64,000 bases of DNA from Thermoanaerobaculia bacterium (GTDB lineage: Bacteria > Acidobacteriota > Thermoanaerobaculia > Multivoradales > JAIOJS01). Position numbers and translations under genes: made by a program. The stretch is taken from positions 452,832 to 516,831 of the forward strand of contig CAWINM010000001.1 in the NCBI GenBank assembly GCA_963837455.1. The letters are read 5' to 3'. The notes beneath the pieces were generated by a model that was not told the origin of the DNA, did not search any database, and saw nothing but the letters and a program-made list of their open reading frames with translations. This document shows, piece by piece, positions 8,952-31,597 of this stretch (position 1 is the stretch's first letter; each line of letters opens with the position of its first letter).

Positions 8952-9878
8952 ATGCGTTCACCCTGGAGCTGCCTCGCAGCCGTCGCCGCCGGTTTCGTCC
9001 TGGTGACCGGCGTTGCCCGCGCCGGCGATCCCACCACCGACCTGATGGAGAGCATGAGGAAGCTCTCCACGCTCAAGTCCTACAAGGTGCGCGACAGCTT
9101 CAGCTTCGGCGGCCAGATGAGCGCCCAGATGGAGATGCTGAAGTCGATGGGCCTCGGCGACATCCTGCCCAAGGGCGGGACGCAGGAGGTCGTCAACCCC
9201 GACCTGCGACGCACCACCGTGCCGCAGCGGATTCCGAGCCGCAAGGGCGTGATGGGGGCCATGCAGATGATCGAGGCCAACCTCATCATCGTCGTGAAAG
9301 CGCCGCCCGGCGCGCCGCCGAAGGCCGCGACCTTCATCGACTGTGAGGAGTGTGAGCGCAACCAGGACCAGGCCGTCGACGAGGAGCTGGAGCGGCAGGC
9401 CTCCCAGTCCTCCGCGAGCCTCATCCACGAGGTCGTCAACGCTGTCGCCGGGGGCCCCTCGGGGATCGCGGCCGCCATCACCGAGATCGCCGGGAGCCGC
9501 GTCCAGAACCGGCTCGCCCACGCCGAGAACGAGAGGGGCAAGCAGAAGATCTCGCTCAACCGTTGGAAGTGCCGGGATACCGGCGATGCAGCGGAGCCGC
9601 CGCGGACGGGGAACGAGAAGCCCCCCTTCCACGACGTCAAGTACCTCGGCGAGCAGAGCGTCGGCGGCGAGAAGGCCAAGGTCTATCAGTTCAGCGTCGA
9701 CGACGAGAACACCGGCCAGTCCTATCCCATGACCTTCTACAGCTCGGCAGCTACCGGCCTGCCGATGAAGATGGAGCTCCAGGTCGACGTCGGGCAGGGG
9801 ATGACCGGCGGCATGACGATGGAGTACTACGACTTCGACGTACCCATCCAGATCGACGTGCCTGACTGCCTGAAGTGA
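8952..9878 (+). CDS. exported Met-rich hypothetical protein (signal peptide; multiple MxM/MxxM motifs, 4 Cys)
   Basis: ATG at 8952 after GAGGAGAG. Signal peptide MRSPWSCLAAVAAGFVLVTGVARA. Composition is unusual for this genome (Met/Lys/Glu/Gln-rich, locally lower GC). Confidence 0.6.
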   Translation: MRSPWSCLAAVAAGFVLVTGVARAGDPTTDLMESMRKLSTLKSYKVRDSFSFGGQMSAQMEMLKSMGLGDILPKGGTQEVVNPDLRRTTVPQRIPSRKGVMGAMQMIEANLIIVVKAPPGAPPKAATFIDCEECERNQDQAVDEELERQASQSSASLIHEVVNAVAGGPSGIAAAITEIAGSRVQNRLAHAENERGKQKISLNRWKCRDTGDAAEPPRTGNEKPPFHDVKYLGEQSVGGEKAKVYQFSVDDENTGQSYPMTFYSSAATGLPMKMELQVDVGQGMTGGMTMEYYDFDVPIQIDVPDCLK

Positions 9879-11202
9879 ACCGGCCGCCGCGGCGGCGGGC
9901 GCTGGGCGGGGAGGAGCTGCTGCTAGCCCCTCCGCGCCGTCCGCGTTCGTTGAAGTCTTTCCTGCGGCCACGTCCGGAGCGGAAGTTGCCGCGGGAGCTG
10001 CAGCCCGGGCGGGTCGGCCGGCTTGCTCGCGCCCTGCCGCAGGGCGTGCACGATCCCGGCTTCGCTGGCCTGCTGGCGCGCATCGACGGCGACGGATCGG
10101 TCCGGGGTGGCAACCGCGTCACCGTCTACTGCGACGGCGAGGAGGCGACGCGCGCCATGCTCGACGCCATCGCCGCGGCACGCCAGGAAGTGCTGCTCGA
10201 GGCCTACATCTTCACCGACGACTCCACCGGCACGCGCTTCGCCGAGATGCTGACGGCGGCGCGCCGGCGCGGGGTCCACGTCCGCGTGCTCGCCGACGCC
10301 ATCGGCTCCTTCGCCACCGCCGCCGCCTTCTGGCAGCGCATGCAGGAGGACGGCATCGAGGTGCACCTCTTCCACCGGCTCTTCCCCGACCTCTGGTGGC
10401 AGGCGTTCCGCGACCACCGCAAGATCCTCGTCGTCGACCGCGAGGTCGGCTTCACCGGCGGCATGAACATCGCCGACGAGTACTCCTCCTTCTCGCTGCG
10501 CAGGAAGCGCATCGCGCCCGGGGCGATGCGCGACACCCACGTGCGCGTGGAGGGCGGGGTGGCCTGGGAGCTCGCGGCGGTCTTCGCCGAGGGGTGGAGC
10601 GGGCGGGCGGCGAGACCCTGCCGCTGACTCCCGAGCCGCCGGCGCTGGACAGCCCGGTGCGATCCCTGGTGCTCGACTCGCGTCCAGGGCGCGGGCACAT
10701 CGAGACCGCTGCCGCGCTCGCCGCCATCGTCGGCGCCGCCCAGCGCTCGCTCTGGCTCACCAACGCCTACTTCGCCCCCGGCCACGTCGCAGTGGGTATC
10801 CTTTCCCGCGCCGCCGCACGCGGCCTCGACGTGCGCCTGCTGCTCCCCGGCAAGACCGACGTCCCGCTGGTGCGGCACGCCGGCCACGGCTGGTACTCTC
10901 GGCTGCTCGCCAAGGGGGTGAGGATCTTCGAGTACCAGCGCGCGCTGCTGCACGCCAAGACTCTGGTGGCCGATCGCCACGTCGCCGTGGTGGGCTCCAC
11001 CAACCTCGACTTCCGTTCCTTCCAGCTCAACGCCGAGTGCAACGTCGTGCTGCTCGACGACGGAGTGGGCGAGATCCTGGCGCAGGCTTTCGAGCGCGAC
11101 CTCGCCGACAGCCACGAGGTGGACCCCGCGACCTGGAGCCGGCGAGGTACCCTGCACCGGCTGGGCGACCGCCTGGCCGGCGTGCTGACACCGTTCCTCT
11201 GA
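9875..11202 (+). CDS. cls: cardiolipin synthase / phospholipase D family protein (two HKD motifs), interrupted by a frameshift near 10595-10620
   Basis: HKD motif 1 (HRKILVVD) is in the frame starting at 9875. HKD motif 2 (HAKTLVAD) is in the frame of ORF 10396..11202. The two halves are contiguous apart from a 1-nt frame change. GTG start overlaps the upstream stop. Confidence 0.65.
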
Positions 11203-11216
11203 GAGGCTGGAGACCG

Positions 11217-12185
11217 ATGGCCTTCGACCCCGGCAGGATGTCCCTCCCCGAGCTGCGCGAGTGGGTGAGCGCGCGGGGCGGCGGCATCTCGCCGCAGGCG
11301 CTCAAGAAGCTCGCCCGCGATCCGCGCCGCGGGGTGCGGCAGCTCTACGAGACGCTGCGCCGCCGCGCCGAAGAGGAGCGGCAGCGGCGGCTCCACCTCG
11401 ATGCCCTGCTCAACTTCGAGCGCGTGCTCTGGCGCACCGGCGTGCGCTGGATTGCCGGCGTCGACGAGGTCGGGGTGGGGCCGCTCGCCGGCCCGGTGGT
11501 GGCGGCGGCGGTGGTGTTCCCACCCGGCACCGAGATCGAGGGCGTCGACGACAGCAAGCGGCTCGACGCGCCCACCCGCGAGCGGCTGGCGGTGGAGATC
11601 CGCGCCTATGCCGAGGGGATCGGCATCGGCCGCGCCGAGGTCGAGGAGATCGACGCCATCAACATCTACCAGGCGGCGCTGCTGGCGATGCGCCGCGCCA
11701 TCGAAGCGCTGCCGATGGTGCCGCAGCACGTGCTCGTCGACGCACGGGAGGTGCCAGGGCTGGCGATGCCGCAGAACCAGTTCGCCAAGGGCGACGGCAT
11801 CAACTTCTCGATCGCCGCCGCCTCCATCATCGCCAAGACCCACCGCGACGGGCTGATGGCCGAGCTCGACACCGCCTACCCGCTCTACGGCTTCGCGCGC
11901 CACAAGGGGTACGGCACGGCGGAGCACCAGCAGGCGATCCGCCGCCACGGCCCCTGCCCGGTGCACCGCCAGAGCTACGCCTTCCTGCACGAGCTGTGCG
12001 GCGAGCTCTCGGCGGCGTTCTACGCGCTGCAACAGCGGATCGCGGCGGCGCTCGACGGCACCGCCCTCGAGGAGCTGACGCGCGAGCTGCGCGGCCACCG
12101 CGACACCCTTTCCGAGGTCGAGCGCAAGAAGCTCGAGGCCGCCCTCGACCGCCGCTGGCAAGCCCTCGCCGTGGGTCGCGGCTGA
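11217..12185 (+). CDS. rnhB: ribonuclease HII
   Basis: RNase HII catalytic core (GVDEVGVGPLAGPVVAAAVV...DDSKRL...) plus a C-terminal extension. ATG at 11217. Confidence 0.8.
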   Translation: MAFDPGRMSLPELREWVSARGGGISPQALKKLARDPRRGVRQLYETLRRRAEEERQRRLHLDALLNFERVLWRTGVRWIAGVDEVGVGPLAGPVVAAAVVFPPGTEIEGVDDSKRLDAPTRERLAVEIRAYAEGIGIGRAEVEEIDAINIYQAALLAMRRAIEALPMVPQHVLVDAREVPGLAMPQNQFAKGDGINFSIAAASIIAKTHRDGLMAELDTAYPLYGFARHKGYGTAEHQQAIRRHGPCPVHRQSYAFLHELCGELSAAFYALQQRIAAALDGTALEELTRELRGHRDTLSEVERKKLEAALDRRWQALAVGRG

Positions 12186-13717: not shown

Positions 13718-15490
13718 ATGCCTCAGCGACCCACCCCAGCAGCCATCCCGCGCGCCTCGGCCTCGTTACCGCGAAGCGCTGCCGCCAGCACGGTGCCACC
13801 ACTCCCACCGCGCCTCCGCCTGGCGCCCGCCCTCGCCGCGGCGCTGCTCGTGCTGCTCTCCGCCTGTGCCGGTGCCCAACAGCCGCACGCCATGGTCGAT
13901 GCCGCCGCGGCGCCCGCGGGCAACGTCGCCACGCGCGCCCGCCGGCCCCCGGCGTCGTCGGACTGGCTCCGCGGCGCCGTCGTCTACGAGCTGTTCGTGC
14001 GCAGCTTCCGCGACGCCGACGGCGACGGGGTCGGCGACCTCCGCGGCCTCACCGCACGGCTCGACTACCTCAACGATGGCAAGCCAGGTGGCGACGACCT
14101 CGGGGTCGACGCGCTGTGGCTGATGCCGGTCTTCGCGTCGCCGAGCTACCACGGCTACGACACCACGGACTACGAGCACGTCAACGATGCCTACGGCAGC
14201 GAGGCAGACTTCGATGCCTTCCTCGCCGCCGCCCACGCGCGCGGCATGCGGGTGATCCTCGACCTGGTGCTCAACCACACCAGCGACCAGCACCCGTGGT
14301 TCGTCGACTCCGCGAGCGGCTGGGGGGCGGCGCGGCGCCAGTGGTACGTGTGGCGCGGCGACGACCCGGGGTGGACGCAGCCCTGGGGCGGCAGCAACCA
14401 CACCTGGCACCCGCGCAACGGCGCCTTCTACTACGGCATCTTCTGGTCGGGGATGCCCGATCTCAACTACGCCAACCCAGAGGTGCGCGCGGAGATGGAG
14501 CGGGTGGCCGCGCGCTGGCTGTCGCGCGGCGTCGACGGCTTCCGTCTCGACGCCGCCCGCCACCTCTTCGCCGATGGGCCTGGCGAGCTGCAGAACGACC
14601 GCCCCGCCACCCACGACATGCTGCGCGAGCTCGCCGCCAAGGTGCGCCAGGCCAAGCCCGATGGGGTGCTGGTCGGCGAGAGCTGGACCGAGATGCCGAT
14701 CATCGCCAGCTACTACGGCAGCCACGCCGTCCCCGTCCCCGACGAGCTGACCAGCTGCTTCGACTTCCCGCTCGCCGAGCAGATCCTCGCCGGCGTGCGC
14801 GACGGGGACGCCGCCGGCATCGCCGCCAAGATCGCCGAGGTGCAGCGCCTCTACCCGCCGGGCGCCGTCGACGCCCCGTTCCTCACCAACCACGACCAGG
14901 TGCGGGTGGCGACGCAGCTCGCTGGCGACCCCGGCAGGCTACGGGCCGCTGCCGCCGTCCTGCTCACGCTCCCCGGCGCGCCGTTCCTCTACTACGGCGA
15001 GGAGCTGGGCATGGAGAACGGCCCCGGCAGCGGCGACGAGGCCAAGCGCACGCCGATGCCATGGGACGCCTCGCCCGATGGCGGATTCACCACCGCCACG
15101 CCGTGGTACCCGTTCGGCCCCGGTCACGAAGCGGTGAACGTGGCGGCCGAGCGGCACGACCCGGCGTCGCTGCTCGCCTGGTACCGGCGGCTCATCGCCG
15201 CCCGCCACGGCTCGGCGGCGCTGCGCCAAGGCGACCTGCGGCTGCTCCCCGCGGGAAGCCAACCGGCGGCGCTGCTCGGTTTCCTGCGCCGCAGCGGCAA
15301 GGAGACCGTGCTGGTGCTGCACAACCTCGGCGGCGAGCCCCTCACCAGCGAGCCGCTCCCGTATACACCGCGCCAGCTGCGGCGGCCGCTGCTCGAGAGC
15401 GATGGCGCCAGCGTGGTGGCGGAAGGCAAGGGACGCCAGGCCCGCGTCGCGTTGCCCGCTTACGGCTCCGCGATCCTCCGCGTCCAGTAA
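13718..15490 (+). CDS. GH13 alpha-amylase family glycoside hydrolase, lipoprotein
   Basis: Lipobox LLSACAG. GH13 catalytic motifs ([20 protein letters not shown]). AGGAG RBS 7 nt upstream. Confidence 0.85.
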
Positions 15491-15500
15491 CTACGGGCCC

Positions 15501-15532
15501 CTGCGCACCGCCCGCTCACGGGCGGTGCGCAG
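15501..15532. terminator. bidirectional intrinsic terminator hairpin between convergent genes (CTGCGCACCGCCCG-ctca-CGGGCGGTGCGCAG)
   Basis: Perfect 14-bp stem with a 4-nt loop, located exactly between the amylase stop (15490) and the stop of the minus-strand gene (15558). Confidence 0.5.
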
Positions 15533-15557
15533 GCTCACCAGGAGAGGGCGCGGCCGG

Positions 15558-16550
15558 CTACGGCTTGGCCGGCTCTGCGGCCCGCTGCGACGGCACCACG
15601 CCCGGCAGCCGCACCGGTCGCTGGTCGTGCCGGCTGTAGTCGGCGAGCAGCCGCTCCTGGGTCGTCCCCGGCGGCGCGATGAGGTCGACGATCGGCGGCT
15701 GCAGGGCATCGTCCTCGCGCCCGCCGCCGAGCGTCTCGCGCGGACGACCCGCCGCCACCGGCAGGATCAGCAGCCGCTCCTCCTGCGAGTTGGCGACGCC
15801 CAGCATCCCCCCGAGGTCGACGTTCTGCTGCAAGTCGGCGGCGGAGACCAACACCACGTAAGCCCAGTCGGAGCTCGGCGGTCCGCCGAGGAAGGAATCG
15901 GGCACGAAGAAGTCGATCTCGCGGCCACGCACGCGCGTCTCGTTGGGGAAGAAGACGTGACGCTCGACGTCGTCGGGGATGGAGAGGATCATGGCGTCGG
16001 CTTCCTGGTCGGTGAAGCGCGACGTGTCCTTCTTCATCTCCTGCTTGAGCGCTCGCATCATGCTGCGCTTGAGCTCGCTGCGGGCGTAGAAGGGGCGGGG
16101 CGTGAGCACCACCGCACGGTCCCACGCGAAGTCGGGGGCGATCTCCACGCGGCGACCCGGCAGCGTGCGCGTGCCGCCGGAGCCGGGCTTGCGGTCCATG
16201 TCGATGTAGACGTCGATGTTGAAGGTGTAGAAGCCGTTCTTGGCGACGTCGTCGAGCTGAGTGCCGATGGCGTCGATGGCGCGCCGCTCGGGCCGGCGGA
16301 CCGGCCGTGCGAAGGTCGCCGCGAACCAGGTCCCGCCGTCGCCCCGGCTGGCGCTGAGCGACAGCAGGTCGAGCTCGCCCTTGGCGTAGTCGGAGTTGTC
16401 GGGGTAGACGAGGTCGCCACTCCCGTGATCGTCGCCGCGCGGGTCGGTGAGCTCGAAGAGCGGGCGGTCCCGTGCCAGCGCGGCAAGCGGGCCGAGGAGG
16501 AGGGCGGCGCCGAGAATCGCCAGCGGCTGGCGGATCGTTGCGGGCGTCAT
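15558..16550 (-). CDS. secreted protein, paralogue A of a pair flanking the large OM beta-barrel (possible carbohydrate-binding / glucodextranase-C-like domain)
   Basis: Signal peptide, then a conserved block DPRGDDHGSGDLVYPDNSDYAKGELDLLSL shared with 18848..19672. AGGAG RBS. Confidence 0.6.
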   Translation of the reverse strand: MTPATIRQPLAILGAALLLGPLAALARDRPLFELTDPRGDDHGSGDLVYPDNSDYAKGELDLLSLSASRGDGGTWFAATFARPVRRPERRAIDAIGTQLDDVAKNGFYTFNIDVYIDMDRKPGSGGTRTLPGRRVEIAPDFAWDRAVVLTPRPFYARSELKRSMMRALKQEMKKDTSRFTDQEADAMILSIPDDVERHVFFPNETRVRGREIDFFVPDSFLGGPPSSDWAYVVLVSAADLQQNVDLGGMLGVANSQEERLLILPVAAGRPRETLGGGREDDALQPPIVDLIAPPGTTQERLLADYSRHDQRPVRLPGVVPSQRAAEPAKP

Positions 16551-16626
16551 TGCAGGCTCCTGCAGGTGTGGGGCGATGCCCGGCGCCGACGCGGGAGCGT
16601 GGCGACGCCGGGCACCCGGAATGGCG

Positions 16627-18818
16627 TCAGAAGACGATCTTCATGAACGTCTTGATGCGCTGCTGCGTGAAGTCGCGGGTCGACAAGCTGTTCCAGCCGC
16701 CGAAGCGACCGCGAAAACCGAGCGAGCCGACCGGCACGCCGAAGTCGTTGTGGATCGACTCGTCGGCCACCTGCGGCACGAACCCGCCGCCGAAGCTGGG
16801 GTCGAAGCTGCCCGAGTTGTACTCGTAGCTGAAGCCGAACTCGGCGCCGCCCAGCACGTAGTGGGCGCTCACGATGACCTTGTCCTTGGTGGTCTGGCCG
16901 GCGGCCATGCTGTGCAGCTGGTAGGCCTGGAAGGCGGTGTTGCCGTCCTCGAGGTCGACGTCGTAGCGCTCGAAGGTCAGCGACGCATAAAGGTTGTCGG
17001 TGACCTGGTAGCCGGTGCCCAGCTGGTACAGCTTGTAGCTCATGTCCTCGTCGTCGTCGGTGACGCTGTCGAACGGCTTCCACTGGTAGCCGGTGACGCC
17101 GTTGACGGTGATCACCGGCGGGTTGCCGTACAGGGACGCCGTCGAGAAGTCGCCAGAGTAGTTGTTGACGTCGTTGTGGCAGGCAGCGCCGCCACCGGGG
17201 CAGTCACCGGGCTTGTAGGGCAGGAAGCGGGCGTCGGTCATCCGCTTGTCGGTCTCGTCGATCCACTTGAGCTTGCCGAAGACGTCGACGCCGCGGCCGA
17301 TGTCGAGCACGTACTTGCCGCGCAGCACGGCGATCTTCGTCTTCTTGTCCTGGAACGGCGCGTAGGCGTTGCGGAACGAGCCGATGCCGGCATCGGACTC
17401 GAAGTTGGGGTAGATCGAGTTGTCGATGGCGCGGCTGGTGTCGCCCCAGGCTTGCCAGTTGGTGTTGTAGTCGATCCAGGTGTACTCGCCCGAGAGGTTG
17501 AGGTCGCCGAGCGTCCAGTTGGGGGCGACGGTGAAGCCCTTCCAGCCGATCACCGTCTCCGCCATCGGCTCGTCGAAGTCGGTGAACTCGTTGTCGACGT
17601 TGACCGTCGCCACCTGCTGCGCGGTACCCTGCCAGCCCCCCCAGCCGATGCGGGTGGGGTTGCCGGGGAAGACGCCGAAGGACGCGTTGTCCGGTCCCGG
17701 GAAGGCGAAGGCGCCGTCGTGGCCCTCGGTGAGCAGCACGTCGGACTCGCGCCGCGCCGCCAGGATCGAGCTGTACTGGGCGCCGATGTCGAAGTACTCG
17801 AGGTTGAACGACAGCCCGGCGCCGAAGGGGTCGTTGACGTCGACGTCCGCCTTGTAGGAGTGGTCGTCGACCTTGCCGACCAGGGCGGGCGAGAAGCCCG
17901 AGAGACCGAAGCCGCCGGGCAGGCTGGGGTCGACCTTGCGGTTGGCGTCCGCCGAGGACCAGTAGGCCTGGCCGCGGACGTCGACCATGGCGTTGGGGTG
18001 GACCCCGAAGCGCACCCCCCAGACGTCGTTCTCGAAGCGATACGCGATGTCGGTGCCATTGTCGCGATTGACGTCGGTGACGTCGAGCTCCTCGTCGCGC
18101 ACGCGGTCGTAGATCGCCGAGGCGTCGAACAGCGGTGACGCGGCGAGCTTGAGCTGCAGCGCGTAGGCCTGGTCGGCCGCCGTGTAGCTGCCGGTGTTGA
18201 AGTTGGGCCCCGCGAACAGCCGCGGCAACGAGATGCGGGCGAAGTCGTAGCTCAGCTGCTTGCCGAGGCGGCCCTGGAAGAGGATGGCGCTGGCGTTGTC
18301 ACGGTCGATGTAGCGGATCTTGCCGATGGTGAAGGGGTCGAACATCCCCAGGTCCGAGGAGCCGATGGTGGCGGCGTCGAGCAGCTTGAAGCCCGGGGTG
18401 ACGCGGACGGTCATTCCCCGCAGCTTGATGTACTGGTTCGAGCGCGGGTCGAACTCGCCGCAGTCGCCGCCGATGCAGGGGCCGCTGGTGGACCCGCCGA
18501 AGCCGCCGTAGTTGGTCCACTGGTTCTGGTTGAAGCGTGACTTGATGCGCCCCGAGACCTCGATGTACTTCGACGGCCGCGAGGCGAGCAGCAGCTCGAG
18601 CTCGTCCCCTGGCCGTTGTCGCCGTACCCCTCCCCGGGGACGGTGGTGAAGTTGTAGACGCTGCCATCGGTGCGCTGGGTGCCCCACAGCCACTTGGTGT
18701 AGGTGACGCCGGTGATCACCAGTCGTTGCGGCCCCTGCGCGCCTGCCGCTGCCGGCAGCAGCAGGGCGGCGACCAGCGTCGCCGCCAGGGCCAGTCTTGC
18801 GTTCCATCGCATCGCCAT
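16627..18818 (-). CDS. large outer-membrane beta-barrel protein (about 730 aa, C-terminal ...MKIVF), one frameshift near 18613
   Basis: Signal peptide MAMRWNARLALAATLVAALLLPAAAGAQ in ORF 18411..18911. The body is in ORF 16627..18807. The junction NGQG|DELELL needs one extra G in a G-run. Alternating aromatic/hydrophilic beta-strand pattern and terminal Phe. Confidence 0.65.
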
Positions 18819-18847
18819 GTCCCTCCGACGGTAGGCGCTCGCGCGCC

Positions 18848-19672
18848 CTACCCTTGTTTGCGGACCATGGTCAGGGTGGCCATGGTCTTCGCCGTGCCGT
18901 CCGGATTGCACTCGTACTTCAACATGTCGTGCTGCGCCTGCACCTCGCCCGCCGAGCCCTCGGCCGGCGGCGCCAGGATGTCCATGGCGTGCGGATCGCA
19001 GTCACCGTCGTTGCCGCCGCCGAAGCGGTGCTGGCCTTCATACTCGTTGACCTTGCGGGTGAGCAGGTCGTTGCCGGCCGGGAACCCCTCGTTGGACTGC
19101 ATGATGACCTGGTAGCCCCAGGTGGCGGGGTCGCCACCGCCCAGCGCCGCGAGGTCGACCGTGGCGCTGATGGTGCGCCCTGCCCCGCGGGTGCGGGTCG
19201 GCACCACGATCGCCGACTTCATCGCCGCCGCCTTCTGATCGATCTCGTTGTTGACCCGCCCCAGCGGCTGCGGCGAGAGGATCACCAGGCGATCCCAAGC
19301 GTCGGCCGGCGCGAAGGCGACGTTGAGGCCCGGAGGAGCGCCGGTGGAACCGCTGCCCTCCTTGTGGTCGGTGTCGATGAAGACGAACACCATTTGCACC
19401 GAGAAGCCCACTCCCATCCGCCAGGGGTCCTCTAGCGTGCTGTTGGTGGTCACCGCGAAGGTGACCTTGTCCCCCTTGGTCGTGACGTCGAGGCTAACGA
19501 GGTCGAACGACCCCGCCTTGTACACGCCGTCGGTGGGATAGGTGTAGTTGCCCGGCCCGTTGTCGTCGCCGACCGGGTCCTTGAAGGTGATCGACTGCGC
19601 CCACAGGGTACCGGCGGCCAGGGCGCCGACCCAGGCCACCGCTCCCACTCTCCACCATGTCGACCGTCGCAT
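18848..19672 (-). CDS. secreted protein, paralogue B (shares N-terminal DPxGDDxGPGxYxYP...DLxSL motif with 15558..16550)
   Basis: Preferred start is MRRSTWW at 19672, after AAGGAGG. Signal peptide. Shares the DPVGDDNGPGNYTYPTDGVYKAGSFDLVSLDV block and a C-terminal D(I/L)LAPP motif with paralogue A. Confidence 0.6.
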   Translation of the reverse strand: MRRSTWWRVGAVAWVGALAAGTLWAQSITFKDPVGDDNGPGNYTYPTDGVYKAGSFDLVSLDVTTKGDKVTFAVTTNSTLEDPWRMGVGFSVQMVFVFIDTDHKEGSGSTGAPPGLNVAFAPADAWDRLVILSPQPLGRVNNEIDQKAAAMKSAIVVPTRTRGAGRTISATVDLAALGGGDPATWGYQVIMQSNEGFPAGNDLLTRKVNEYEGQHRFGGGNDGDCDPHAMDILAPPAEGSAGEVQAQHDMLKYECNPDGTAKTMATLTMVRKQG

Positions 19673-19701
19673 GCGAAGCCTCCTTTCGGCTCTCTCTCCA
19701 A

Positions 19702-20581
19702 TCAACCCTTGACGGCCCCGGCGGTGAGGCCGGAGACCAGGTAGCGCTGCAGGAACATGAACAGGGCGCCCACCGGGATGGCGGTGACGATGGCGCCGGC
19801 GGCGAAGTAGCCCCCACTGCTGCGGTGTACCGACGAAGAAACGCGAGGCCGACCGGGGCGGTATACATCGTCTCCTTGTCCATGAAGGTGGCCGCCAGGA
19901 TGAACTCGTTCCATGCCGTCATGAACGAGAACAGCGCGGTCACCGCCACCGCCGGCTTCGCCAGCGGCAGCACGATGCTCAAGAAGACCCTGCCGGCGAG
20001 GCGCCGTCGATGAGCGCCGACTCCTCCAGCTCCCTGGGAATGGTGTCGAAATAGCCCTTGAGCATCCACACGCAAAAGGGTATTGCGGTCATCGCGTAAA
20101 CCAGCACCAGGCCCGGCCAGGTCGAGCCCAGCCAGCCACTTGACGATGATGATGTAGAGCGGGATCAACATCAGCACGCCGGGGAACATCTGCGAGACCA
20201 GGAACGACATCAGCCCGGCGCGGCGCCGCGGGAAGCGGAACCGCGAGAAGGCGTAGCCGGCGGTGCAGGCCAGCGCCACGCCGAGCACCGTCGTCGCCGC
20301 CGAGACGATCGCACTGTTGAACAGCCAGCGCGCGAACGGCTGCTGGGAGAAGAGGTCGGTGAAGTTGGCGGCCGAGAGGTGGTCGGGCCAGGGGATCACC
20401 GCCCGCAGCCGGTCGAGCCAGCTGGGGTCCGGCGGCAGGTGGACGATGGCGAGCTGCTGCTGGCCGGAGAAAGCGATGCTGGACACCCACAGCACGGGGT
20501 AGATGGTGGGTGATCGCCGCCAGCCACCAGGATGAGGTGCAGCGGCCGGTGGGGCGGCTCGTCGCTACGGCGATGGCTCAC
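19702..20581 (-). CDS. MalG-like carbohydrate ABC transporter permease, disrupted by two or more frameshifts (about 19800 and 20500)
   Basis: The N-terminus ([21 protein letters not shown]), the body ([11 protein letters not shown]...EAA motif region) and the C-terminus ([36 protein letters not shown]) lie in three different frames. The GTG start overlaps the malF stop. Confidence 0.6.
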
Positions 20582-22527
20582 GTCACGGCCTCCGTGCCCT
20601 TGGTGACCCGGTTCTGCCAGGTGCCATAGGCGAAGAGGATGAAGAAGATGATCGTCGAGTAGGCGGCAGCGTAGCCATAGCGGTACTGCTCGAAGGCGAT
20701 CTTGTACGCCTCGGTGATGAGGATCTCGGTCGAGCCTGCCGGCTCGCCCGCCGACACCAGGTAGATGATGTTGAACATGTTGAAGGTCCAGATCATCGAG
20801 ATGATCACCGCCGGCACCAGCGCCGGCTTGAGCGAGGGCAGGGTGATGTGCGCAACTGCTGCCAGCGCGAAGCGCCGTCCACCCTCGCCGCCTCGTAGAT
20901 GTCGGTGGAGATCGACTGCAGCGCGCCGAGGGAGATCACCATCATGAAGGGGAACGACAGCCAGCCGTTGGTGGCGAGCATCCGCGGCGAACGAGGTCGC
21001 CGAGCGTGCTCGAACCACGACACTGGCGCAGCCCCGAACAGCTGCAAGACCTGGTTGATCCGCCGAACTGCCGATGGAACATCCCCCTCCAGATCAGCGC
21101 GGTGATGTAGTTCGGCATCGCCCAGGGCAGGATAAGATGACCCGGTAGACGGGACGCAGGGCGAGGCGCGGCGTGTTGAGGATGAGCGCCAGGACGAGCC
21201 CGCCGGTGACGCCCAGGGCGACGTTGGTCACCGTCCAGACGATGGTGAAGAGCAGGGTCCAGTAGAAGTTGCCGTAGTTCCAGGTGAGACCCGCGGCGGT
21301 GTGGGTGACGAGGTGGAAGTCGCCGAGGATGTCGGTGAAGTTGGAGAGACCGACCCACAGCTCGGTGAGCGGCTTCTGACTGTTGTAGATGTTGGCGTTG
21401 GTGAAGGCGAGGGTGATGCCGTAGAGGAAGGGGAAGAAGACCAGCACCAGCATGCCGATCATCGCCGGCAGGGCATAGGCATAGGCGACGCGGAAGCGGA
21501 CCAGGGTGGTCCACGCCTGCAGCGCGGCGCCGGTGCCCACGATCAGGAAGAGGGCAAGCGCCAGGATGACGGCGCCGGCGGCGGGCCGCAGCGCTCTCTT
21601 GCGCACCGCGGCGGCCGCCGCGTCCACGGCCGCCTTCACCAAGCCGGTCGTGGTCAGCTCGCCGCGGGGATGGCGGAAGCGGTCGGCGTCCCAGGCCGCA
21701 GGCTGCAGGGGCTCGTGCGTGGCGGCGCCGAGCTGCGCCAGCACCGCCTCGGCACGCTGTGCCCTGGCGGCAACGTCGACGGCGACCTCGGACGCGGCGC
21801 CGCGGCGGGAGGCCGCCAGCGAGCGGGCGGTCGACAGCGCATAGCCACCGACGCCGGCGACGACGAGCAGCGTCGCCGCCACCCCCGCCAGCCAGCGACG
21901 GCCGCGCAGCAGCGGCCAGAGGGCGAGGAAGGCGACCACGGGCAGCGCCGCCGCCGCCAGCGCTCGCCAGCTCGCCGGCCGCGGCGCCGGCGCCATGGGA
22001 CGCGTGTCCACCTGCACCAGCCCCGCCACCTCGCCACCGGTCACCCAGGGCGTCGACAACCGCAGCCCGCCGTCGGGGAGCTGCTCGACGACGATCTCCT
22101 CCTGCCGCACGCCCCCCTCGCGGTTGGCCTCCACCGCCGAGCGCAGCTGCCGGGCGAGGTCGTACACCGGCTTCTCGTCGCGCACCAGGCGGCGCGGCGG
22201 CGCCCCGCGCTCGCGATCGGCAGCGTCGGTCGAGGCGACCAATGTGCGGCTGTCGATGTCCACCACGCGCAGCGCCCGCACCCGCGGGTCGGCCTCGGTC
22301 CACAGCTCGACGGCCTTGCCGACCACCGACCGCGCCGCCTCGACAGGCGTCTCCTCGATGACGCTGCCCTCCTCGGGCGGCGTGCCGGGGGCCGGCGCCT
22401 GGGCGGCGGCGGCGGCCTCCCGCGCGCGGCCGGCGAGGTCGGCGAAGGCCTGCAGCGAGACCACCGTCCGTCGCGCCGCCAGCTCTTCGGCGAGGCTCGA
22501 GCGCAGCTCGGAGACGCCGGCCCACAC
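20578..22527 (-). CDS. MalF-like carbohydrate ABC transporter permease with roughly 175-aa N-terminal soluble extension, disrupted by about three frameshifts (near 20880, 21050, 21140)
   Basis: MalF-like segments (PWAMPNYITALIWRGMFHRQFGG, INQVLQLFGAAPVSWFE, GWLSFPFMMVISLGALQSI, AHITLPSLKP..., C-terminal ...TWQNRVTKG) are distributed over three reading frames. Confidence 0.55.
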
Positions 22528-22639
22528 TAGCCCGACGCCTATGACGAGGCCGAGCAGCAGCCCGGCGAGCAGGCGCTTGCGTGGGTCGGGGAGCGGACGG
22601 GTAGCTTCGGCGTTCAGGGCAAACCTCCGGCGGGCGCCC

Positions 22640-23866
22640 TCACCCGCGCAGCTTGGCGATACGTTCGATGACTTCCTTCTGCGCCTGCTCGAGCGCCGCC
22701 TTGGGCGTCGCCGCCCTCTTCACCACGGCGTTCATCGCCGTCGTCGCCGGCGACCAGACCATCGTCATCTCGGGCAGGTTGGGCATCGGCACCGCCACTT
22801 CGACCTGCTTGCGGAAGGCCTCGAGGATGGGGTCGGCCTTCACCTGCGGGTCGTCGTAGACCGCCTTGTTGGCCGGCGTCTGGCGCCCCTCGAGGGCGAG
22901 GGTGCGCGCCGCCGGCAGGTCGGTGAGGTACTGGACGAAGTCGTAGGCGGCGTCCTTGCTCTTCGACGGCGCCGCGATGTACACGCCCTCGACGGTCATC
23001 CACGGGCGCATCGGCTTGCCCCCTGCCTCGTCGATGGTGGGCAGCATGGCGAGCCCGTACTTCACCTCGGGCGCGATCTCGCCGAGGAACCACGGGCCGG
23101 AGAAGACCATCGCCGCCTTGCCCTGGTTGAAGAGCGCGGTGATGAGCGCGGTCGAGGGCTCGGCGGGGAGGATCTTGTCCTTGTCGAGCCAGCGCATCAG
23201 CAGCTCGATCGACTTGACGTTGGCAGGGTCGTCGAGCGTCGGCTTGCGGTCGGGGCCGAAGACATGGCCGCCGAAGCCGTTCATCAGCGCGGCGTGGTAG
23301 TAGAAGTCCGAGAACCAGTAGGCGAGGCCGAACCTCCCCTCCGCGGGCTTGCCCAGCTTCTTGGCCAGGGCCACCAGCTCGCCGGTGGTCTTGGGCGGCG
23401 TCTGCACCAGCGCCTTGTTGTAGACGAGGGTGATGACCTTGTAGTTGAGCGGCAGGCCGTAGACGTTGCCCTGGTAGGTCATCGCCTCCATGGTGGAGGG
23501 CAGGAAGCGCTGCTTGGTGGCGTCGTCGAGGAAGAAATCGATGGGCTCGACGGTGTTGCCGGCCACAACCCAGCCGCCCAGGCGGTCCTGCGCGTAGATG
23601 AAGACGTCCGGACCCTTGCCGCGCGGCACCGCGGCGGTGATCTTGTCGGCGAAGGCGTCGTAGGGAACTGCCAGCGTCGTAACCTTGATTCCCTTGGCGG
23701 CGCGCGTCTGGTTGTACGCCGCCACCACCTTCTCGAAGGCGTCCTTCTCACCGCCCCGGTAGGCGTGCCACACCACCAGCTCGGTGGCGGCGCCGGCGGG
23801 AGCCACGGCCGTCAGCACCAGGCCGGCGGCGGCGAGCAGACGCAGGAGAGCGCGCAGGGTCTTCAT
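22640..23866 (-). CDS. maltose/maltodextrin-type extracellular solute-binding protein (family 1 SBP, MalE-like)
   Basis: 408 aa, intact, with a signal peptide and family-1 SBP conservation. Confidence 0.85.
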
Positions 23867-23878
23867 CGCCAGGACCTC

Positions 23879-24980
<1,102 letters not shown>

Positions 24981-24995
24981 CGCTCGCACACCTCC

Positions 24996-26564
24996 TCAGG
25001 GGATCGCCGCCAAGATGCGGAAGCCGTGCGCGGGCACGCTCAGCGCCAGCTCGCCACTTGCAACCGGCGCCGTCTCGCCGCTCCATTCGTCGCGCACTGC
25101 CTTGGCGGCCCAGGCGGCGGGTGCCGCGAGAGTGGCGCCGGCAGCGGCGCCGCCGCGGTTGACTGCCACCAGGACCACCTCCCCGCTCGCCGCGTCGCGG
25201 CGGGAGAAGACGAGCAGGTCCCCTGCGCTCGCCACGCCCTCCTGGGTGCCCTCGGCGAGCGCCGGGTGGGCGCGGCGAATGGCGATCAGCCTCTGGTAGT
25301 CGCGCCGCAGCGCCTCGTCGCGCGGCCTGCCGGCACCGGGCAGGATCGCTCGCTCGCCCCACGGCATGTCGCTGCGGTTGTCCGGCCAGTCGCCGCCCAG
25401 GCGCCCGACCTCCTCGCCGTAGTAGATGACGGGGATGCCGCCGGTGGTGAGCTCGAGGGCGGCGGCGAGACGGAACAGATCCTTGTCGCCAGCGAGCTGG
25501 AACAGCGCTCCCGGCACGTCGTGCGAGGAGAGGAAGTGCGCCAGCAGGTGGCCGGCGCGCACCTTGCCGCGCGACTCGAGGTAGTGCTCGTAGGCGACGG
25601 TGCGGCCGCGACCCTGCACCCAGCCGAGGGTGCTGCCCTGGAAGCCGAAGTCGAAGCCGGCGTCGAGCTCGTCGGCGGCGAACCAGGGGTCGAGCACCTG
25701 CGCGTCGCCACCCCACACCTCGCCGAGCAGGAAGAAGCCGGGAGAGAGCTCGGCGCGGGTGCGCCGACGGTGCTGCTGCCAGAACTCGTGCGGCACGTGC
25801 TTGACGGTGTCGAGGCGGAAGCCGTCGACGCCGGCGCGCTTGGCGATCGGCAGCTGCCAGTCCATCAGCTGCTTGGCGATGGCGGGCACCTCGGTGCGGA
25901 AGTCGGGCAGCCCGGAGACGCAGCTGGTGAGGTCGTCGCTGCCGCAGCCGCCGTTGTCGCCGCTGCGCAGCCAGCTCCTCGTCACCGGGTCGGTCAGGTA
26001 ATGGGAGTGGTAGCCGGCGTGGTTGTAGACGACGTCGAGCAGCACGCGGATGCCGCGGGCATGGGCGGCGGCGACCAGCGCCGCCAGCTCGGCCTCGCTG
26101 CCGAAGCGGCTGTCGAGGCGCGAGAAGTCGTCCGGCCAGTAGCCGTGGTAAGCCCAGTCAGGGAAGCCGGCACCGGTGACGAAGCCATCGATGTTCTTGA
26201 CCACCGGCGTGATCCACAGCGCGGTGACGCCGAGCGAGGCGATCTCGTCGATCTGCTGGGTGAGCCCGGCGAGGTCGCCGCCATGGAAGGTCCCCTTGGC
26301 GGTGAGGTCGACGTCACGGTCGTTGCCGCGGTCGCCGTCGGCGAAGCGGTCGACGATGGCGAAGTAGAGGACCTCGCGCGACCACGGGCGAGCAGGCAGC
26401 GGAGCGGGAGCGACGCTCGCGACCGCGGGCGGGGCCGGCGCCGGCGGCCGCGGAGCACCGCTCGTGGTACAGGCGGCGGTGAGCGCCACCAGCGCGAGCG
26501 GCCATCCCGCGCGCCAGAGCCGCCGGGAGAGGTCCGACCGCGAGGAGACGCCAGCATTCGGCAT
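24996..26564 (-). CDS. GH13 alpha-amylase family glycoside hydrolase, lipoprotein
   Basis: Start at MPNAGVSS (26564) with lipobox LTAAC. GH13 motifs GFRLDTVKH, GEVW, SSHD. First gene of the co-directional cluster. Confidence 0.8.
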   Translation of the reverse strand: MPNAGVSSRSDLSRRLWRAGWPLALVALTAACTTSGAPRPPAPAPPAVASVAPAPLPARPWSREVLYFAIVDRFADGDRGNDRDVDLTAKGTFHGGDLAGLTQQIDEIASLGVTALWITPVVKNIDGFVTGAGFPDWAYHGYWPDDFSRLDSRFGSEAELAALVAAAHARGIRVLLDVVYNHAGYHSHYLTDPVTRSWLRSGDNGGCGSDDLTSCVSGLPDFRTEVPAIAKQLMDWQLPIAKRAGVDGFRLDTVKHVPHEFWQQHRRRTRAELSPGFFLLGEVWGGDAQVLDPWFAADELDAGFDFGFQGSTLGWVQGRGRTVAYEHYLESRGKVRAGHLLAHFLSSHDVPGALFQLAGDKDLFRLAAALELTTGGIPVIYYGEEVGRLGGDWPDNRSDMPWGERAILPGAGRPRDEALRRDYQRLIAIRRAHPALAEGTQEGVASAGDLLVFSRRDAASGEVVLVAVNRGGAAAGATLAAPAAWAAKAVRDEWSGETAPVASGELALSVPAHGFRILAAIP

Positions 26565-26579
26565 CGAAGCTCTGATCCC

Positions 26580-26665
26580 GTTGACACTAGGAGCCCGGGG
26601 CTCCCGGCTCCACCCCCCGATGACACGGGGCCTCCCACCCGAAGGGGTGGGTATCGGACCCAGTG
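26580..26665. promoter_or_regulatory. structured leader/promoter region upstream of the amylase-transporter cluster: two GC hairpins plus tandem heptamer CCCAGTG x2
   Basis: GAGCCCGGGGCTC and CCCACCCgaaGGGGTGGG inverted repeats, and a CCCAGTGCCCAGTG direct repeat, lie within the roughly 600-bp intergenic region between the divergent amylase and ubiB-like genes. Confidence 0.2.
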
Positions 26666-27161
26666 CCCAGTGCCCCTGGCGCACTCGAATCAAGAGCCGC
26701 CACAAGGAGAGGGTCCCGTTCTTGGCAGCCATGGAGCTGCTGCGGGGCTATTCTCGATCCGGAGCCGTCGGTCCGACAATCCCCGACGGGTGGGGGCCAT
26801 CGCCCTGGACGGGCACCACCCGCGGGGGCGGCGGCCGGTGCGAGCCCGGCGACGCGCGGCGGGATGGTGAAGCCGTGACACCAAAGGCCACCTCACCCCG
26901 CCGGGTCGGCGGGCCTGCCGGCCGGCGGGCGTAGGCTGGGCTCGCAATGCCCACCGAGAACCCTACGCAGAACGAGCTCGTCGCCGCCTTGCCAGACGCC
27001 CTCCACGCCGCGCTCGGGGTGCGGCTGACGCCGCGCGGAGGTCACGCCATCGAAGAGCCCCGGCGTGGCGGAATCGCCCACGACCCGACGGTCGCGCCGG
27101 CAAGGCGGGGGCGCGGGGGCGTCCTGGCGACGGTGGCCGTCGTCTCCCTGGAGACGTCGAC

Positions 27162-28826
27162 GTGGCGACTGGTGTGACCCGCTGGCCCGACCTCGTCCGC
27201 CGCTCCCGCGAGGTGGTGGCGACGCTGGTGCGTCACGGCCTGGGATCGCTGGCTCGCGAGCTGCGCCTCCGCCGCTGGCCGCCGCCGTGGCCCTGGCGCT
27301 CCGGCACCGCTGCCGACCTACCCACGCACGCCGCCCGCCTGCGGCTCGCCCTCGAGGAGATGGGGGCGACCTTCGTCAAGGTTGGGCAGATCCTCTCCAC
27401 CCGCGCCGACCTGCTGCCTCCCGAGGTGATCGGGGAGCTTACGAAGCTGCAGGACGCCGCCCCCGCCGCGCCCTGGTCGGAAGTGCACGCGCTGCTCGAG
27501 GCAGAGCTCGGGCGGCCGCTCGCCGAGGCCTTCGCGGAGCTCTCACCCGAGCCCTTCGCCGCCGCCTCGCTGGGGCAGGTACACGCCGGCGTTCTTCCCG
27601 GCGGCGAGCAGGTGGCCGTGAAGGTGCTGCGCCCGGGGGTGGAGCGGCAGGTGGAGCTCGACCTCGCCGTCGTCAAGCGCCTCGGCGCCCTCGCCGCGCG
27701 CAACGCGGCGCTCGCCCCCTGGGAGCCGCAGCAGCTGGTCGACGAGCTGGCGCGGACGCTGCGCGCCGAGCTCGACTACCGGCGCGAGGCACGCAGCATC
27801 CAGCGTTTCGCCCGCCAGCTCGCCGGCCTGTCCGGCCTGCGGGTGCCGCGCCTCCATCCCGAGCTCTGCACCCGCCGGGTGCTCACCATGGAGCGGCTCG
27901 ACGGCGTGCGCATCGACGACCTCGCCAGCCTCGCCGCGCTGGGCGTCGACCGTCCCGCCCTCGCTCACCGCATGGCGGAGGTGCTCTTCCGCTCCGCCCT
28001 CCAACACGGCTTCTTCCACGCCGATCCCCATCCCGGCAACTTCCGGGTGCTCGCCGACGGCACCCTGGTGATGCTCGACTTCGGCATGATGGGCTACCTG
28101 GCACGGCGCGAGCGCGAGGCGTTGATGGAGCTGCTGCTCGCCCTCGTCACCGGCGACGCCGACCGTTGCGCCGACCGTCTCGCCGAGCTCGGCGTGCGCG
28201 GCGGCGGCGGCGAGGAGCGCCGGCTCCGCCGGCAGCTCGCCCAGCTGCTCTTCGACTACGCCGAGCTGCCCTTCGGCGAGCTGCCCATGGGCGAGGTCCT
28301 CGGGCGCGTGCTGGAGATCGCCCGCACCCTGCGCCTGAGCCTGCCCACCGAGCTCGCGCTGCTCGCCAAGACGGTGCTGATGGCGGAAGGGCTCGGTATG
28401 CGGCTCGATCCCGGGTTCCAGCTCGTGCCGGTGGCGCGACCGCTGGTGCGGGAGGCGCTCGCTGCGCGCCTCCTGCCGCCGGGCGGCGACCGCCTGCTGC
28501 AGGCGGCGCTCGACCTCACCGGGGTCGCCCGCGAGCTGCCCGCCCGCGCCCGCCGGCTCGGCGATCGTCTCGATCGCGGCGCCCTGCAGGTGGAGGTGCA
28601 GCTCGACCAGCGCGCCTTCGTCCATGAGCTCGAGCGACTGGTGCGCAACCTGCGGGCGTCGGCGCTCAGCGCCGCCGCCATCGTCGCCATGGGCCTGCTC
28701 ATCCTCGCCCACCCGCCGGCCGGCCTGGCGCGGTGGGCGCCGTGGCTCTTCGGCGGCGGCCTGCTGGTCACCCTCGGTCTGCTCGCCTACCTGGTGCTCG
28801 ATAGCTGGCGCTCTCGGCGTCTGTGA
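27162..28826 (+). CDS. ABC1/UbiB-family atypical protein kinase
   Basis: 554 aa with the ABC1 kinase-like domain and a C-terminal TM anchor. GTG start. Confidence 0.8.
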   Translation: MATGVTRWPDLVRRSREVVATLVRHGLGSLARELRLRRWPPPWPWRSGTAADLPTHAARLRLALEEMGATFVKVGQILSTRADLLPPEVIGELTKLQDAAPAAPWSEVHALLEAELGRPLAEAFAELSPEPFAAASLGQVHAGVLPGGEQVAVKVLRPGVERQVELDLAVVKRLGALAARNAALAPWEPQQLVDELARTLRAELDYRREARSIQRFARQLAGLSGLRVPRLHPELCTRRVLTMERLDGVRIDDLASLAALGVDRPALAHRMAEVLFRSALQHGFFHADPHPGNFRVLADGTLVMLDFGMMGYLARREREALMELLLALVTGDADRCADRLAELGVRGGGGEERRLRRQLAQLLFDYAELPFGELPMGEVLGRVLEIARTLRLSLPTELALLAKTVLMAEGLGMRLDPGFQLVPVARPLVREALAARLLPPGGDRLLQAALDLTGVARELPARARRLGDRLDRGALQVEVQLDQRAFVHELERLVRNLRASALSAAAIVAMGLLILAHPPAGLARWAPWLFGGGLLVTLGLLAYLVLDSWRSRRL

Positions 28827-30877: not shown

Positions 30878-31597
30878 TCAGAACCGCCGGCCGAGGCCGA
30901 CCCAGTAGTTGGGCCCGCTGGAGTCGGTGTCGGCCAGCACCTCGGGCGCCGGCGCCAGCGAGCCGCTGGCGGCGACGTGATGGGTGAGACGGCCCCAGAA
31001 GTAGGCGACGCCGACCTCGGCGTACCAGCCCCGGGTCACGCCGAACGGCACGTCGAGCCCGAGCCCGGCCGTCGCCACCGGGAAGCTGCCGTCGTTGCGT
31101 ACGCGCAGACCCTCGTCGAGGAAGTCGTTGCGCAGTGTCAACGTCGTGGTGTCGCGCTCGTAGCCGAATCCGACGCCGGCGAGCACGAAGGGGAACGCCC
31201 GCGCGCAGCCGGGGCACGGCAGGAAGTGTGCCGCCGCCATGAGGTCTGCGAAGACGCTGTAGCGCTGCTCGAAGGCCAGCCGGGCGGGACCGGCCTCGGT
31301 GTCGATGGTGGCCCTGCCGTCGATGGCTCCCCGGCTGTAGTCGCCCTCCACCCCCACCAGCCAGCGCGGCGAGACCTGGCGGAGCACCTTGAGACCGAGG
31401 CTCAGGTTGTGGACGTCCCCCCAGTCCTCGAAGTTGGTGCCGAAGGCGCGGTTGATCTCGGCAATCTGCTCGTTGGTGCGGGTCTGCTTGGGAAAGGCCT
31501 CCTGCAGGTAGAGGGTGGCCGCCCATCCGGGCTCACGTTGCGCCAGCGCCGGGGCGGGGAGAAGGAGCAGGACTGCCAGCCAACTGGTGCGCCGCAT
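30878..31597 (-). CDS. small outer-membrane beta-barrel protein (OmpW/OmpA-like barrel, C-terminal Phe)
   Basis: Signal peptide MRRTSWLAVLLLLPAPALAQ. Beta-strand pattern with a terminal ...GLGRRF. GGAGGTGA RBS. Confidence 0.6.
   Translation of the reverse strand: MRRTSWLAVLLLLPAPALAQREPGWAATLYLQEAFPKQTRTNEQIAEINRAFGTNFEDWGDVHNLSLGLKVLRQVSPRWLVGVEGDYSRGAIDGRATIDTEAGPARLAFEQRYSVFADLMAAAHFLPCPGCARAFPFVLAGVGFGYERDTTTLTLRNDFLDEGLRVRNDGSFPVATAGLGLDVPFGVTRGWYAEVGVAYFWGRLTHHVAASGSLAPAPEVLADTDSSGPNYWVGLGRRF

Follow-up and report, generated by a model that had tools for sequence, protein, structure and literature searches.

How do starch fragments cross the outer membrane (OM) of diderm bacteria outside the Proteobacteria and Bacteroidota? 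This step is largely unexplored, and the question is raised by a locus within 64,000 nucleotides of DNA from a Thermoanaerobaculia bacterium (the window, with a G+C content of ~73%), a member of the Acidobacteriota, a phylum that ranks with the most abundant bacteria of soils. Between 15558 and 19705 on the minus strand, three head-to-tail open reading frames (ORFs) encode a large OM beta-barrel and two flanking secreted proteins, to which we gave the working names gdcU and gdcD, with intergenic gaps of 29 nt (gdcU-barrel) and 76 nt (barrel-gdcD). We lean towards the view that this trio is responsible for the OM step in the import of maltodextrin/alpha-glucan, in which case the module is a concrete candidate route for starch fragments across the OM.

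The two flanking proteins align with 31% identity across 283 aa (E=5e-27), a similarity far beyond chance, and by this comparison they are true paralogues, in agreement with an earlier reading by a model that saw only the letters (the sequence-only reading), which had described a barrel flanked by two secreted paralogues of 274-330 aa. gdcU, 274 aa when counted from its ATG (the open frame reaches back to a TTG at 19705), starts with a Sec/type-I signal peptide (MRRSTWWRVGAVAWVGALAAGTLWA/QS, cleaved after ...TLWA), and gdcD with a type-I signal peptide cleaved at ...LAALA/RD; neither gdcU nor gdcD contains a lipobox cysteine. Because both have type-I signal peptides and lack a lipobox, their default location would be the periplasm. 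The N-terminal block that the sequence-only reading had described is present in both (DPVGDDNGPGNYTYPTDGVYKAGSFDLVSL and DPRGDDHGSGDLVYPDNSDYAKGELDLLSL), except that gdcD departs from the pattern at one position, with YPDN instead of YPxD, and the C-terminal motif, which it had given as D(I/L)LAPP, is common to both as D(I/L)(L/I)APP. The faint resemblance to the C-terminal domain of glucodextranases that it had suggested is borne out by the Pfam family Glucodextran_C (PF09985, curated cut-off 22 bits), which covers nearly the full length of gdcU (E=3.4e-60, 203.8 bits, profile positions 3-226 of 228) and gdcD (E=6.3e-33, 114.6 bits, positions 1-223 of 228). Among solved structures, the only related one is domain C of the Arthrobacter globiformis glucodextranase (1UG9/1ULV, residues 779-934; sequence matches with E=6e-17 for gdcU and 5e-4 for gdcD), on which (1ULV) the beta-sandwich of the paralogues can be superposed. 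Public annotation calls such proteins 'carbohydrate-binding DOMON domain-containing protein' or 'glucodextranase DOMON-like domain-containing protein'. Glucodextran_C belongs to the DOMON-like superfamily, has a CBM9-like beta-sandwich and is found on alpha-glucan enzymes of glycoside hydrolase (GH) families GH15, GH49, GH57 and GH65, where enzyme kinetics hint at recognition of alpha-glucan chains (PMC10074034); the paralogues are therefore not members of a family foreign to alpha-glucans.

BLAST comparisons resolve these proteins into two conserved subfamilies, U-type and D-type. Orthologues of gdcU are 64-80% identical within Thermoanaerobaculia, and U-type proteins retain 43-60% identity to the window gdcU across phyla, their position always being directly upstream of the barrel gene unless the two are fused. 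D-type proteins, with 25-40% identity to the window gdcD, occupy the downstream position and are sometimes absent. With a mean Kimura distance of 0.77, compared with 0.46-0.48 for gdcU and the barrel, gdcD is the fastest-evolving member of the module.

The barrel protein starts at the ATG at 18818 with a signal peptide (MAMRWNARLALAATLVAALLLPAAAGA/QG, cleaved after ...AAAGA) and ends in ...FMKIVF with a terminal Phe. The sequence-only reading had described a roughly 730-aa OM barrel at 16627-18818; these end points and the nature of the protein as a predicted OM barrel hold, but a 1-nt deletion at ~18603 (18600-18610), where acg-gag is present as acgag, interrupts the frame, and that reading had passed through it. 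The frame from the ATG runs to ~18603 and then shifts into the ORF at 16627-18807, which as delimited mechanically opens with 68 out-of-frame residues, so that the signal peptide and the first strand are split from the remainder of the protein. Homologues read GDNGQGTE(I/L)ELL uninterrupted across this point, and the repaired protein of ~730 aa reads ...GDNGQGTELELLL..., in agreement with the family consensus GDNGQGTEIELL. No Pfam or NCBIfam model matches the window barrel, and neither database holds a curated family for it; when 33 diverse members of the barrel family were compared with Pfam, only the generic OMP_b-brl model was found, in 3 of the 33 and with a best E of 0.009, and the family profile finds no match among PDB sequences at E<=10.

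Two AlphaFold2 (AF2) models, one of the repaired window barrel with 40 homologues (predicted local distance difference test, pLDDT, 65; predicted template modelling score, pTM, 0.66) and one of a naturally fused protein with 73 further, unpaired rows (pLDDT 76, pTM 0.74), both contain 22 long antiparallel strands. Turns after the even-numbered strands comprise 2-7 residues and loops after the odd-numbered strands 16-80 residues, a pattern that places both termini of the modelled barrel in the periplasm, in the canonical OM topology. Strand 1 begins at residue 33 of the AF2 model, 5 residues past the signal-peptide cleavage site, and since it follows the signal peptide directly there is neither a plug nor a TonB box. 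The protein thus combines the general features of bacterial OM beta-barrels: a signal peptide, an even number of strands, alternating short turns and long loops, and a C-terminal aromatic beta-signal. All of its top structural neighbours are OM barrels, with MtrB ranking first and Foldseek TM-scores of 0.2-0.3; for the modelled structure this likeness is one of fold class, generic and not a matter of family membership.

The predicted external loops are conserved above the strands (0.80 compared with 0.74), and loop L7 reaches 0.87 and bears the family-invariant motif RRExDVLLTEG; in ordinary porins the pattern is the opposite, the loops being less conserved than the strands. The most conserved stretch of the family, residues 346-425 (window ~17540-17780), is a long predicted loop with AARRESDVLLTEGHDG...NVDNEFTDFDEP, which is also the least confidently modelled region (pLDDT <50) and might either narrow the lumen from within or serve as a docking site for a partner. 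Disulfides are suggested by the Cys pairs conserved in L2 and L9.

Several known barrel families were considered as the identity of this protein and rejected. The sequence-only reading had denied a classical LamB arrangement, rightly so: there is no hidden Markov model match to maltoporin (PF02264), and the predicted barrel is not the 18-stranded one of that family. A TonB-dependent transporter of the SusC kind (PF07715 plus PF00593) agrees in strand number alone, with no match to Plug or TonB_dep_Rec. FadL, BamA/Omp85, AlgE, OprB, MtrB/PioB and ushers give no significant Pfam or NCBIfam match, and structural Z- and TM-scores at generic levels; homology to FadL, BamA or another non-sugar transporter, a finding that would have spoken against the sequence-only reading, does not appear in Pfam, NCBIfam or PDB sequences. 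A tether of the OmpM/SlpA or OmpA type finds no SLH (PF00395) or OmpA_C (PF00691) domain, either among the window proteins or among the fusions described below.

On the same strand, amyA, the first gene of the block, is followed by malK, malE, malF and malG and then by gdcU, barrel and gdcD, so that the trio is downstream of and co-directional with a MalEFGK-like ATP-binding cassette (ABC) transporter and a lipoprotein amylase (amyA, lipobox LTAAC), as had been noted from the letters; amyB, a second amylase gene, is convergent with gdcD. A word-indexed search yields 796 barrel homologues. The 120 closest homologues listed (~735 aa, 64-73% identical) come from Acidobacteriota/Thermoanaerobaculia metagenome bins, and none of these 120 carries a functional name, those annotated at all being called 'hypothetical protein'. 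An exhaustive profile search of 1.84 billion representatives gave only 254 clusters, many of them fragments, and the barrel family is therefore narrow. A scan of GTDB with one genome per species confirmed 438 loci, and synteny was assessed in the best 80 of these 438, with barrels 54-90% identical to the reference homologue P0002, by mapping the operon proteins of one orthologous locus (L002) onto them. In these Acidobacteriota loci the order amyA-malK-malE-malF-malG-gdcU-barrel-gdcD is found wherever the contig is long enough, and the convergent amyB is kept in most.

Synteny among close relatives could be inherited, and for this reason the distant loci weigh more. In a cluster of fusion loci (L084/L085; the relative P0280 is labelled Aminicenantes), an amylase gene on the opposite strand accompanies malK-malE-malF-malG and a gene in which gdcU and barrel are fused. 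On a 4.3-Mb contig (L086), malE-malF-malG, a gene of 199 aa, a fusion, a D-type paralogue and a GH13 gene follow one another, and in a member of the Bradymonadia (L087) the order is GH13 (opposite strand), fusion, two uncharacterised genes, a Glucodextran_C gene and malE-malK-malF-malG. In L090, a barrel-only homologue that shares 31% identity with the fusion query P0148 lies in the canonical order, followed by GH77 MalQ, and a CSSED10-310 locus (L091) has GH57, an uncharacterised gene of 1259 aa, malK, Yip1, a gdcU-type gene, the barrel and a D-type gene. D-type orthologues lie 3' of the barrel in L086, L087, L090 and L091; in the L088/L089 pair the contig ends just upstream of gdcU. By gene content and order, the association with alpha-glucan genes survives a change of phylum, of gene arrangement and of hydrolase family. 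In the 80 best loci and six distant ones, a conserved, unannotated barrel family thus keeps company with MalEFGK and amylase genes, and the co-conservation whose absence would have spoken against the sequence-only reading is seen in essentially all of the 80 best species-level genomes and in the distant rearranged loci. The precomputed Pfam annotation of the examined loci contains no SusD-like protein and there is no adjacent susC-susD pair; in the conserved block we find no tonB or exbBD genes and see no glycosyltransferase, synthase, Wzx/Wzy or OPX genes. Proteins of 456, 464, 1259, 199 and 777 aa, all free of Pfam matches, are interleaved with the module in L087 (12850-15734), L091 (3508-7287) and L086 (9276-9875 and 15171-17504), and might be additional parts of it confined to these lineages.

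That gdcU and the barrel belong together is most directly suggested by gene fusions. About 30 fusion proteins, 861-1012 aa long, share one layout: behind a signal peptide comes a U-type Glucodextran_C domain, which an Ala-, Pro- and Glu-rich linker of ~30-50 residues connects to a barrel devoid of its own signal peptide. Within the Thermoanaerobaculia-type clade, two loci from Acidobacteriota genomes (L065 and L082, ~9100-12100), whose barrels share ~60% identity with the Thermoanaerobaculia type, carry an in-frame fusion of gdcU to the barrel, with an Ala/Pro-rich linker in place of the barrel signal peptide; because fusions also occur inside this clade, fusion or fission happened more than once. 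Such recurrent fusion points to direct association of gdcU and the barrel, which would act together physically, and suggests a first biological role for the Glucodextran_C domain. Since both barrel termini are periplasmic in the AF2 topology, the fused domain would join strand 1 at its periplasmic end. Hinges rich in Ala and Pro are a usual feature of periplasmic tethers, the OmpA hinge being an example. A further protein, P0306 (L092 709-3726), encoded outside any mal context, is a secreted protein of 1005 aa in which a gdcU-like Glucodextran_C domain is followed by a poly-Pro linker, an OmpA-type peptidoglycan-binding domain and ~600 uncharacterised residues; that its C-terminal 600 aa form a barrel of the same family was considered and rejected (hhalign probability 1%). 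Judged by its domain composition, P0306 supports only that a U-type domain can be periplasmic.

From the genomics and the models together, we infer that the barrel transports, that the paralogues bind sugar and where the paralogues reside. As a plausible import mechanism, a lipoprotein GH13 enzyme would cut alpha-glucan to oligosaccharides outside the cell, and the plug-less, TonB-independent barrel of ~22 strands would pass these across the OM. The conserved long loops, above all L7 with its RRExDVLLTEG motif, probably line the route taken by the substrate, folded into the lumen or across it. At the periplasmic barrel end, gdcU probably catches the incoming glucan chain and hands it on; the fusion geometry, the OmpA-like Ala/Pro hinge, the lack of a lipid anchor or surface-sorting signal, and P0306 argue for gdcU in the periplasm. 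The imported oligosaccharides would then be trimmed by the MalS-like amylase before import by MalEFGK, and gdcD may be a second, faster-evolving accessory of the same fold. Such a module would extend the known OM nutrient channels by a large-barrel design independent of TonB, and recognition of the family would improve the annotation of hundreds of 'hypothetical proteins'. We found no prior description of the module in full-text literature among open-access papers; the novelty would lie in a substrate-specific OM channel linked to an ABC importer and in the unprecedented architecture of its partners.

A more far-reaching version, which we put forward tentatively and with a good deal less assurance, joins these elements into a new class of OM glycan translocon, a TonB-free, plug-less 22-stranded barrel with a loop-shaped lumen and a DOMON-like ratchet. 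The DOMON-like domain at the periplasmic exit would ratchet long alpha-glucan inward to the MalS-like amylase and MalE, the linker-borne domain might bridge to the large MalF as a trans-envelope conduit, and gdcD would possibly be a second receptor on the surface side. If this were true, the module would represent a third architecture for diderm starch uptake beside LamB and SusCD, and provide the first function for a stand-alone Glucodextran_C domain.

A number of points weigh against the import function. The function rests on gene neighbourhood, and according to PMC10074034 no one has yet demonstrated sugar binding by a Glucodextran_C domain. Confidence in the AF2 models is moderate (pLDDT 65 and 76), and lowest in the most conserved loops. 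gdcD is missing in L084 and possibly in L074, L079 and L080, and is therefore not essential to the module. Mirror-tree residuals (53 loci, with the MalK/E/G background removed), values that carry no significance test, amount to 0.40 for barrel-gdcU, 0.41 for barrel-gdcD, 0.18 for gdcU-gdcD and 0.06 for amyA-gdcU, and lend weak support to the barrel acting as a hub, but the amyA-barrel residual is 0.30 as well. The barrel frameshift, finally, is common to two assemblies, the second being a 6.2-kb Logan contig of the same organism (L003, run ERR11718635) that is 99.6% identical to window positions 14543-20784; because this independent contig carries the same lesion, it may be a real inactivating mutation, so that the module may be inactive here, or it may be a shared error.

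The location of the fused domain bears on the alternative that survives best, namely that the Glucodextran_C protein or proteins are displayed on the cell surface via the barrel, in a Sus- or autotransporter-like manner, and bind starch or dextrin outside while the barrel still imports; we regard this as plausible, though clearly less likely than the periplasmic placement. With its ~30-50 residues, the Ala/Pro-rich linker is long enough to pass through the lumen and could present the domain on the outside, and the conserved external loops could dock the partner. The domain is indeed extracellular in the Arthrobacter glucodextranase and in archaeal amylopullulanases (PMC10074034). Surface-exposed proteins often evolve fast, as gdcD does (0.77 compared with ~0.47), and the SusG_C-like domain of amyB recalls the surface amylase SusG. 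However, the paralogues carry no lipid anchor or other known surface-sorting signal, the fusion puts the domain at the periplasmic end of strand 1 by means of a hinge of the kind established for periplasmic tethers, and in P0306 a domain of this type is joined to an OmpA domain that binds peptidoglycan in the periplasm. P0306 can also be turned towards a structural role, as it pairs the domain with peptidoglycan binding outside the mal context: the barrel would be a general porin whose partner domain binds cell-wall glycan in the way of OmpA or OmpM/SlpA, and its position among mal genes would reflect co-regulation. The Pfam label of the domain ('SLH-like') and the high conservation of the barrel among the closest 120 listed homologues fit such an envelope tether, yet the module tracks alpha-glucan genes across phyla and gene orders, as would not be expected of a housekeeping tether, the domain travels with alpha-glucan hydrolases and not with cell-wall proteins (PMC10074034), SLH and OmpA domains are absent from the window proteins, and the structural matches to OmpM and SlpA are no better than those to other barrels; we therefore consider the tether improbable. 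Least credible is export of an alpha-glucan polymer or of the amylases through the barrel with the paralogues as periplasmic chaperones, for although AlgE, PgaA, PelB, PapC/FimD and FhaC are among the structural neighbours (BcsC-like, usher and two-partner pores being further models) and export systems that combine a barrel with a periplasmic partner are known (bioRxiv 10.1101/2022.02.11.480155), the conserved block shows no polymer-synthesis or OPX gene, the linked ABC system, with its substrate-binding protein and permeases of the MalF/MalG type, is an importer, and the amylases are lipoproteins that take the Lol route. Tether and export are both disfavoured because the module accompanies an importer and alpha-glucan hydrolases in loci free of cell-wall-binding domains and polymer-synthesis genes.

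Alpha-glucan import, the reading we prefer, invites comparison with known systems, of which E. coli malK-lamB-malM together with MalS is closest in function. As there, the OM barrel is encoded with a MalEFGK set, a MalS-like amylase (amyA) is present, and a secreted non-lipoprotein accessory gene (gdcD) lies directly downstream of the barrel gene, as malM does after lamB; entry of maltodextrin would probably, as in LamB, be passive and TonB-independent. In contrast to the 18 strands of LamB, the barrel here has ~22, and instead of a MalM there are two Glucodextran_C accessories, one of them fused to the barrel in several lineages. The Bacteroides Sus system (SusC/SusD, SusE/F, SusG) likewise unites in one locus a 22-stranded barrel, putative non-catalytic glycan-binding partners and lipoprotein GH13 amylases, and amyB shares with SusG a SusG_C-like domain. 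However, the present locus has no plug, TonB box, SusD-like gene or lipid-anchored partners, its inner-membrane step is an ABC importer with a binding protein and not the major facilitator superfamily transporter of Sus, and the fused partner joins the N-terminal, periplasmic end of the barrel, whereas SusD forms a surface lid. Caulobacter crescentus MalA and other TonB-dependent transporters (FhuA, ZnuD, Cir) are only 6-12% identical in sequence, and what distinguishes that class (Plug and TonB_dep_Rec matches, the plug itself, the TonB box, tonB/exbBD in the conserved block) is missing here. By sequence, both paralogues belong to the same family as glucodextranase domain C, but here, instead of extending a hydrolase, the domain is secreted on its own or forms part of a barrel fusion, and while the glucodextranase domain works at a monoderm surface, its counterpart in this diderm host is probably periplasmic. 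OmpA, OmpM/SlpA, LptD-LptE and MtrB-MtrA share the logic of a large barrel with a soluble partner that is either tethered through a Pro/Ala hinge or encoded next door; there is no homology to OmpA, OmpM/SlpA, LptD or MtrB (no OmpA, SLH, LptD or MtrB_PioB Pfam match), and unlike these barrels for tethering, lipopolysaccharide or electron transfer, the one described here stands in a sugar-import context.

Features of the alpha-glucan locus in the window, with coordinates, strand and basis of assignment.
Feature	Positions	Strand	Description
gdcU	18848-19672	minus	secreted 274-aa Glucodextran_C protein, DOMON/CBM9-like, U-type; directly upstream of barrel
barrel	16627-18818	minus	~730-aa predicted OM beta-barrel, unannotated family; frame broken at ~18603
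gdcD	15558-16550	minus	secreted 330-aa Glucodextran_C paralogue, D-type; downstream of barrel
malG-like ABC permease	19702-20581	minus	several indels; tblastn matches split across frames
malF-like ABC permease	20584-22527 (upper limit approximate)	minus	three-frame translation and tblastn
malE-like periplasmic substrate-binding protein	22640-23866	minus	Pfam SBP_bac_1 and SBP_bac_8
malK-like ABC ATPase	23885-24989	minus	two tblastn high-scoring segment pairs in different frames; frameshift at ~24303-24361
amyA, GH13 alpha-amylase lipoprotein, MalS-like	24996-26564	minus	lipobox LTAAC; Pfam Alpha-amylase E=4e-47
amyB, second GH13 lipoprotein	13718-15490	plus	lipobox LLSAC; Pfam Alpha-amylase E=6e-97, SusG_C E=2e-6

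The Pfam families of the malEFGK-like genes are those expected of an ABC importer. Among NCBIfam models, the greatest similarity of malE is to MalE (E=3e-53), and that of the malF and malG orthologues in L002 to MalF (E=5.6e-59) and MalG (E=1.4e-56), all three below the equivalog cut-offs, while for malK the MalK model comes second to UgpC. These best matches of malE, malF and malG, together with flanking GH13, GH57 and GH77 genes, suggest specificity of the importer for maltose/maltodextrin. amyA is most similar in NCBIfam to the MalS-type alpha-amylase PRK09505 (E=2e-62, below the cut-off). The malF-like permease is unusually long: orthologues comprise 604-721 aa (L001 6144-8246, L002 6061-8226, L084 7183-9126), compared with ~514 aa in E. 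coli MalF, and the extension, an N-terminal transmembrane helix and an extra domain of ~190 aa before the MalF core, is kept across loci that carry the barrel module.

The transporter genes of the window are themselves damaged, with frameshifts in malK, malF (at least three, at ~20800-21100) and malG; the malK translation degenerates after ...MGHRIA, and the malF frame remains open upstream of 22527 toward malE. All 26 differences between the Logan contig L003 and the window fall within the malG region (19810-20707), the other 5.3 kb being identical, and L003 encodes an intact malG of 293 aa. Because the differences are confined to malG, where L003 restores an intact permease, the damage to malG and malF is probably an assembly error. 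The cluster of indels and substitutions at 19810-21100 looks as if the source assembly had a poor local consensus or mixed strains at this point. A promoter and terminator scan of 15300-27500 gave no signal above shuffled expectation. Beyond the locus and unrelated to it, a minus-strand ORF of 247 aa at 30878-31621, with a signal peptide and the C-terminus ...GLGRRF, looks by eye like a small OM beta-barrel.

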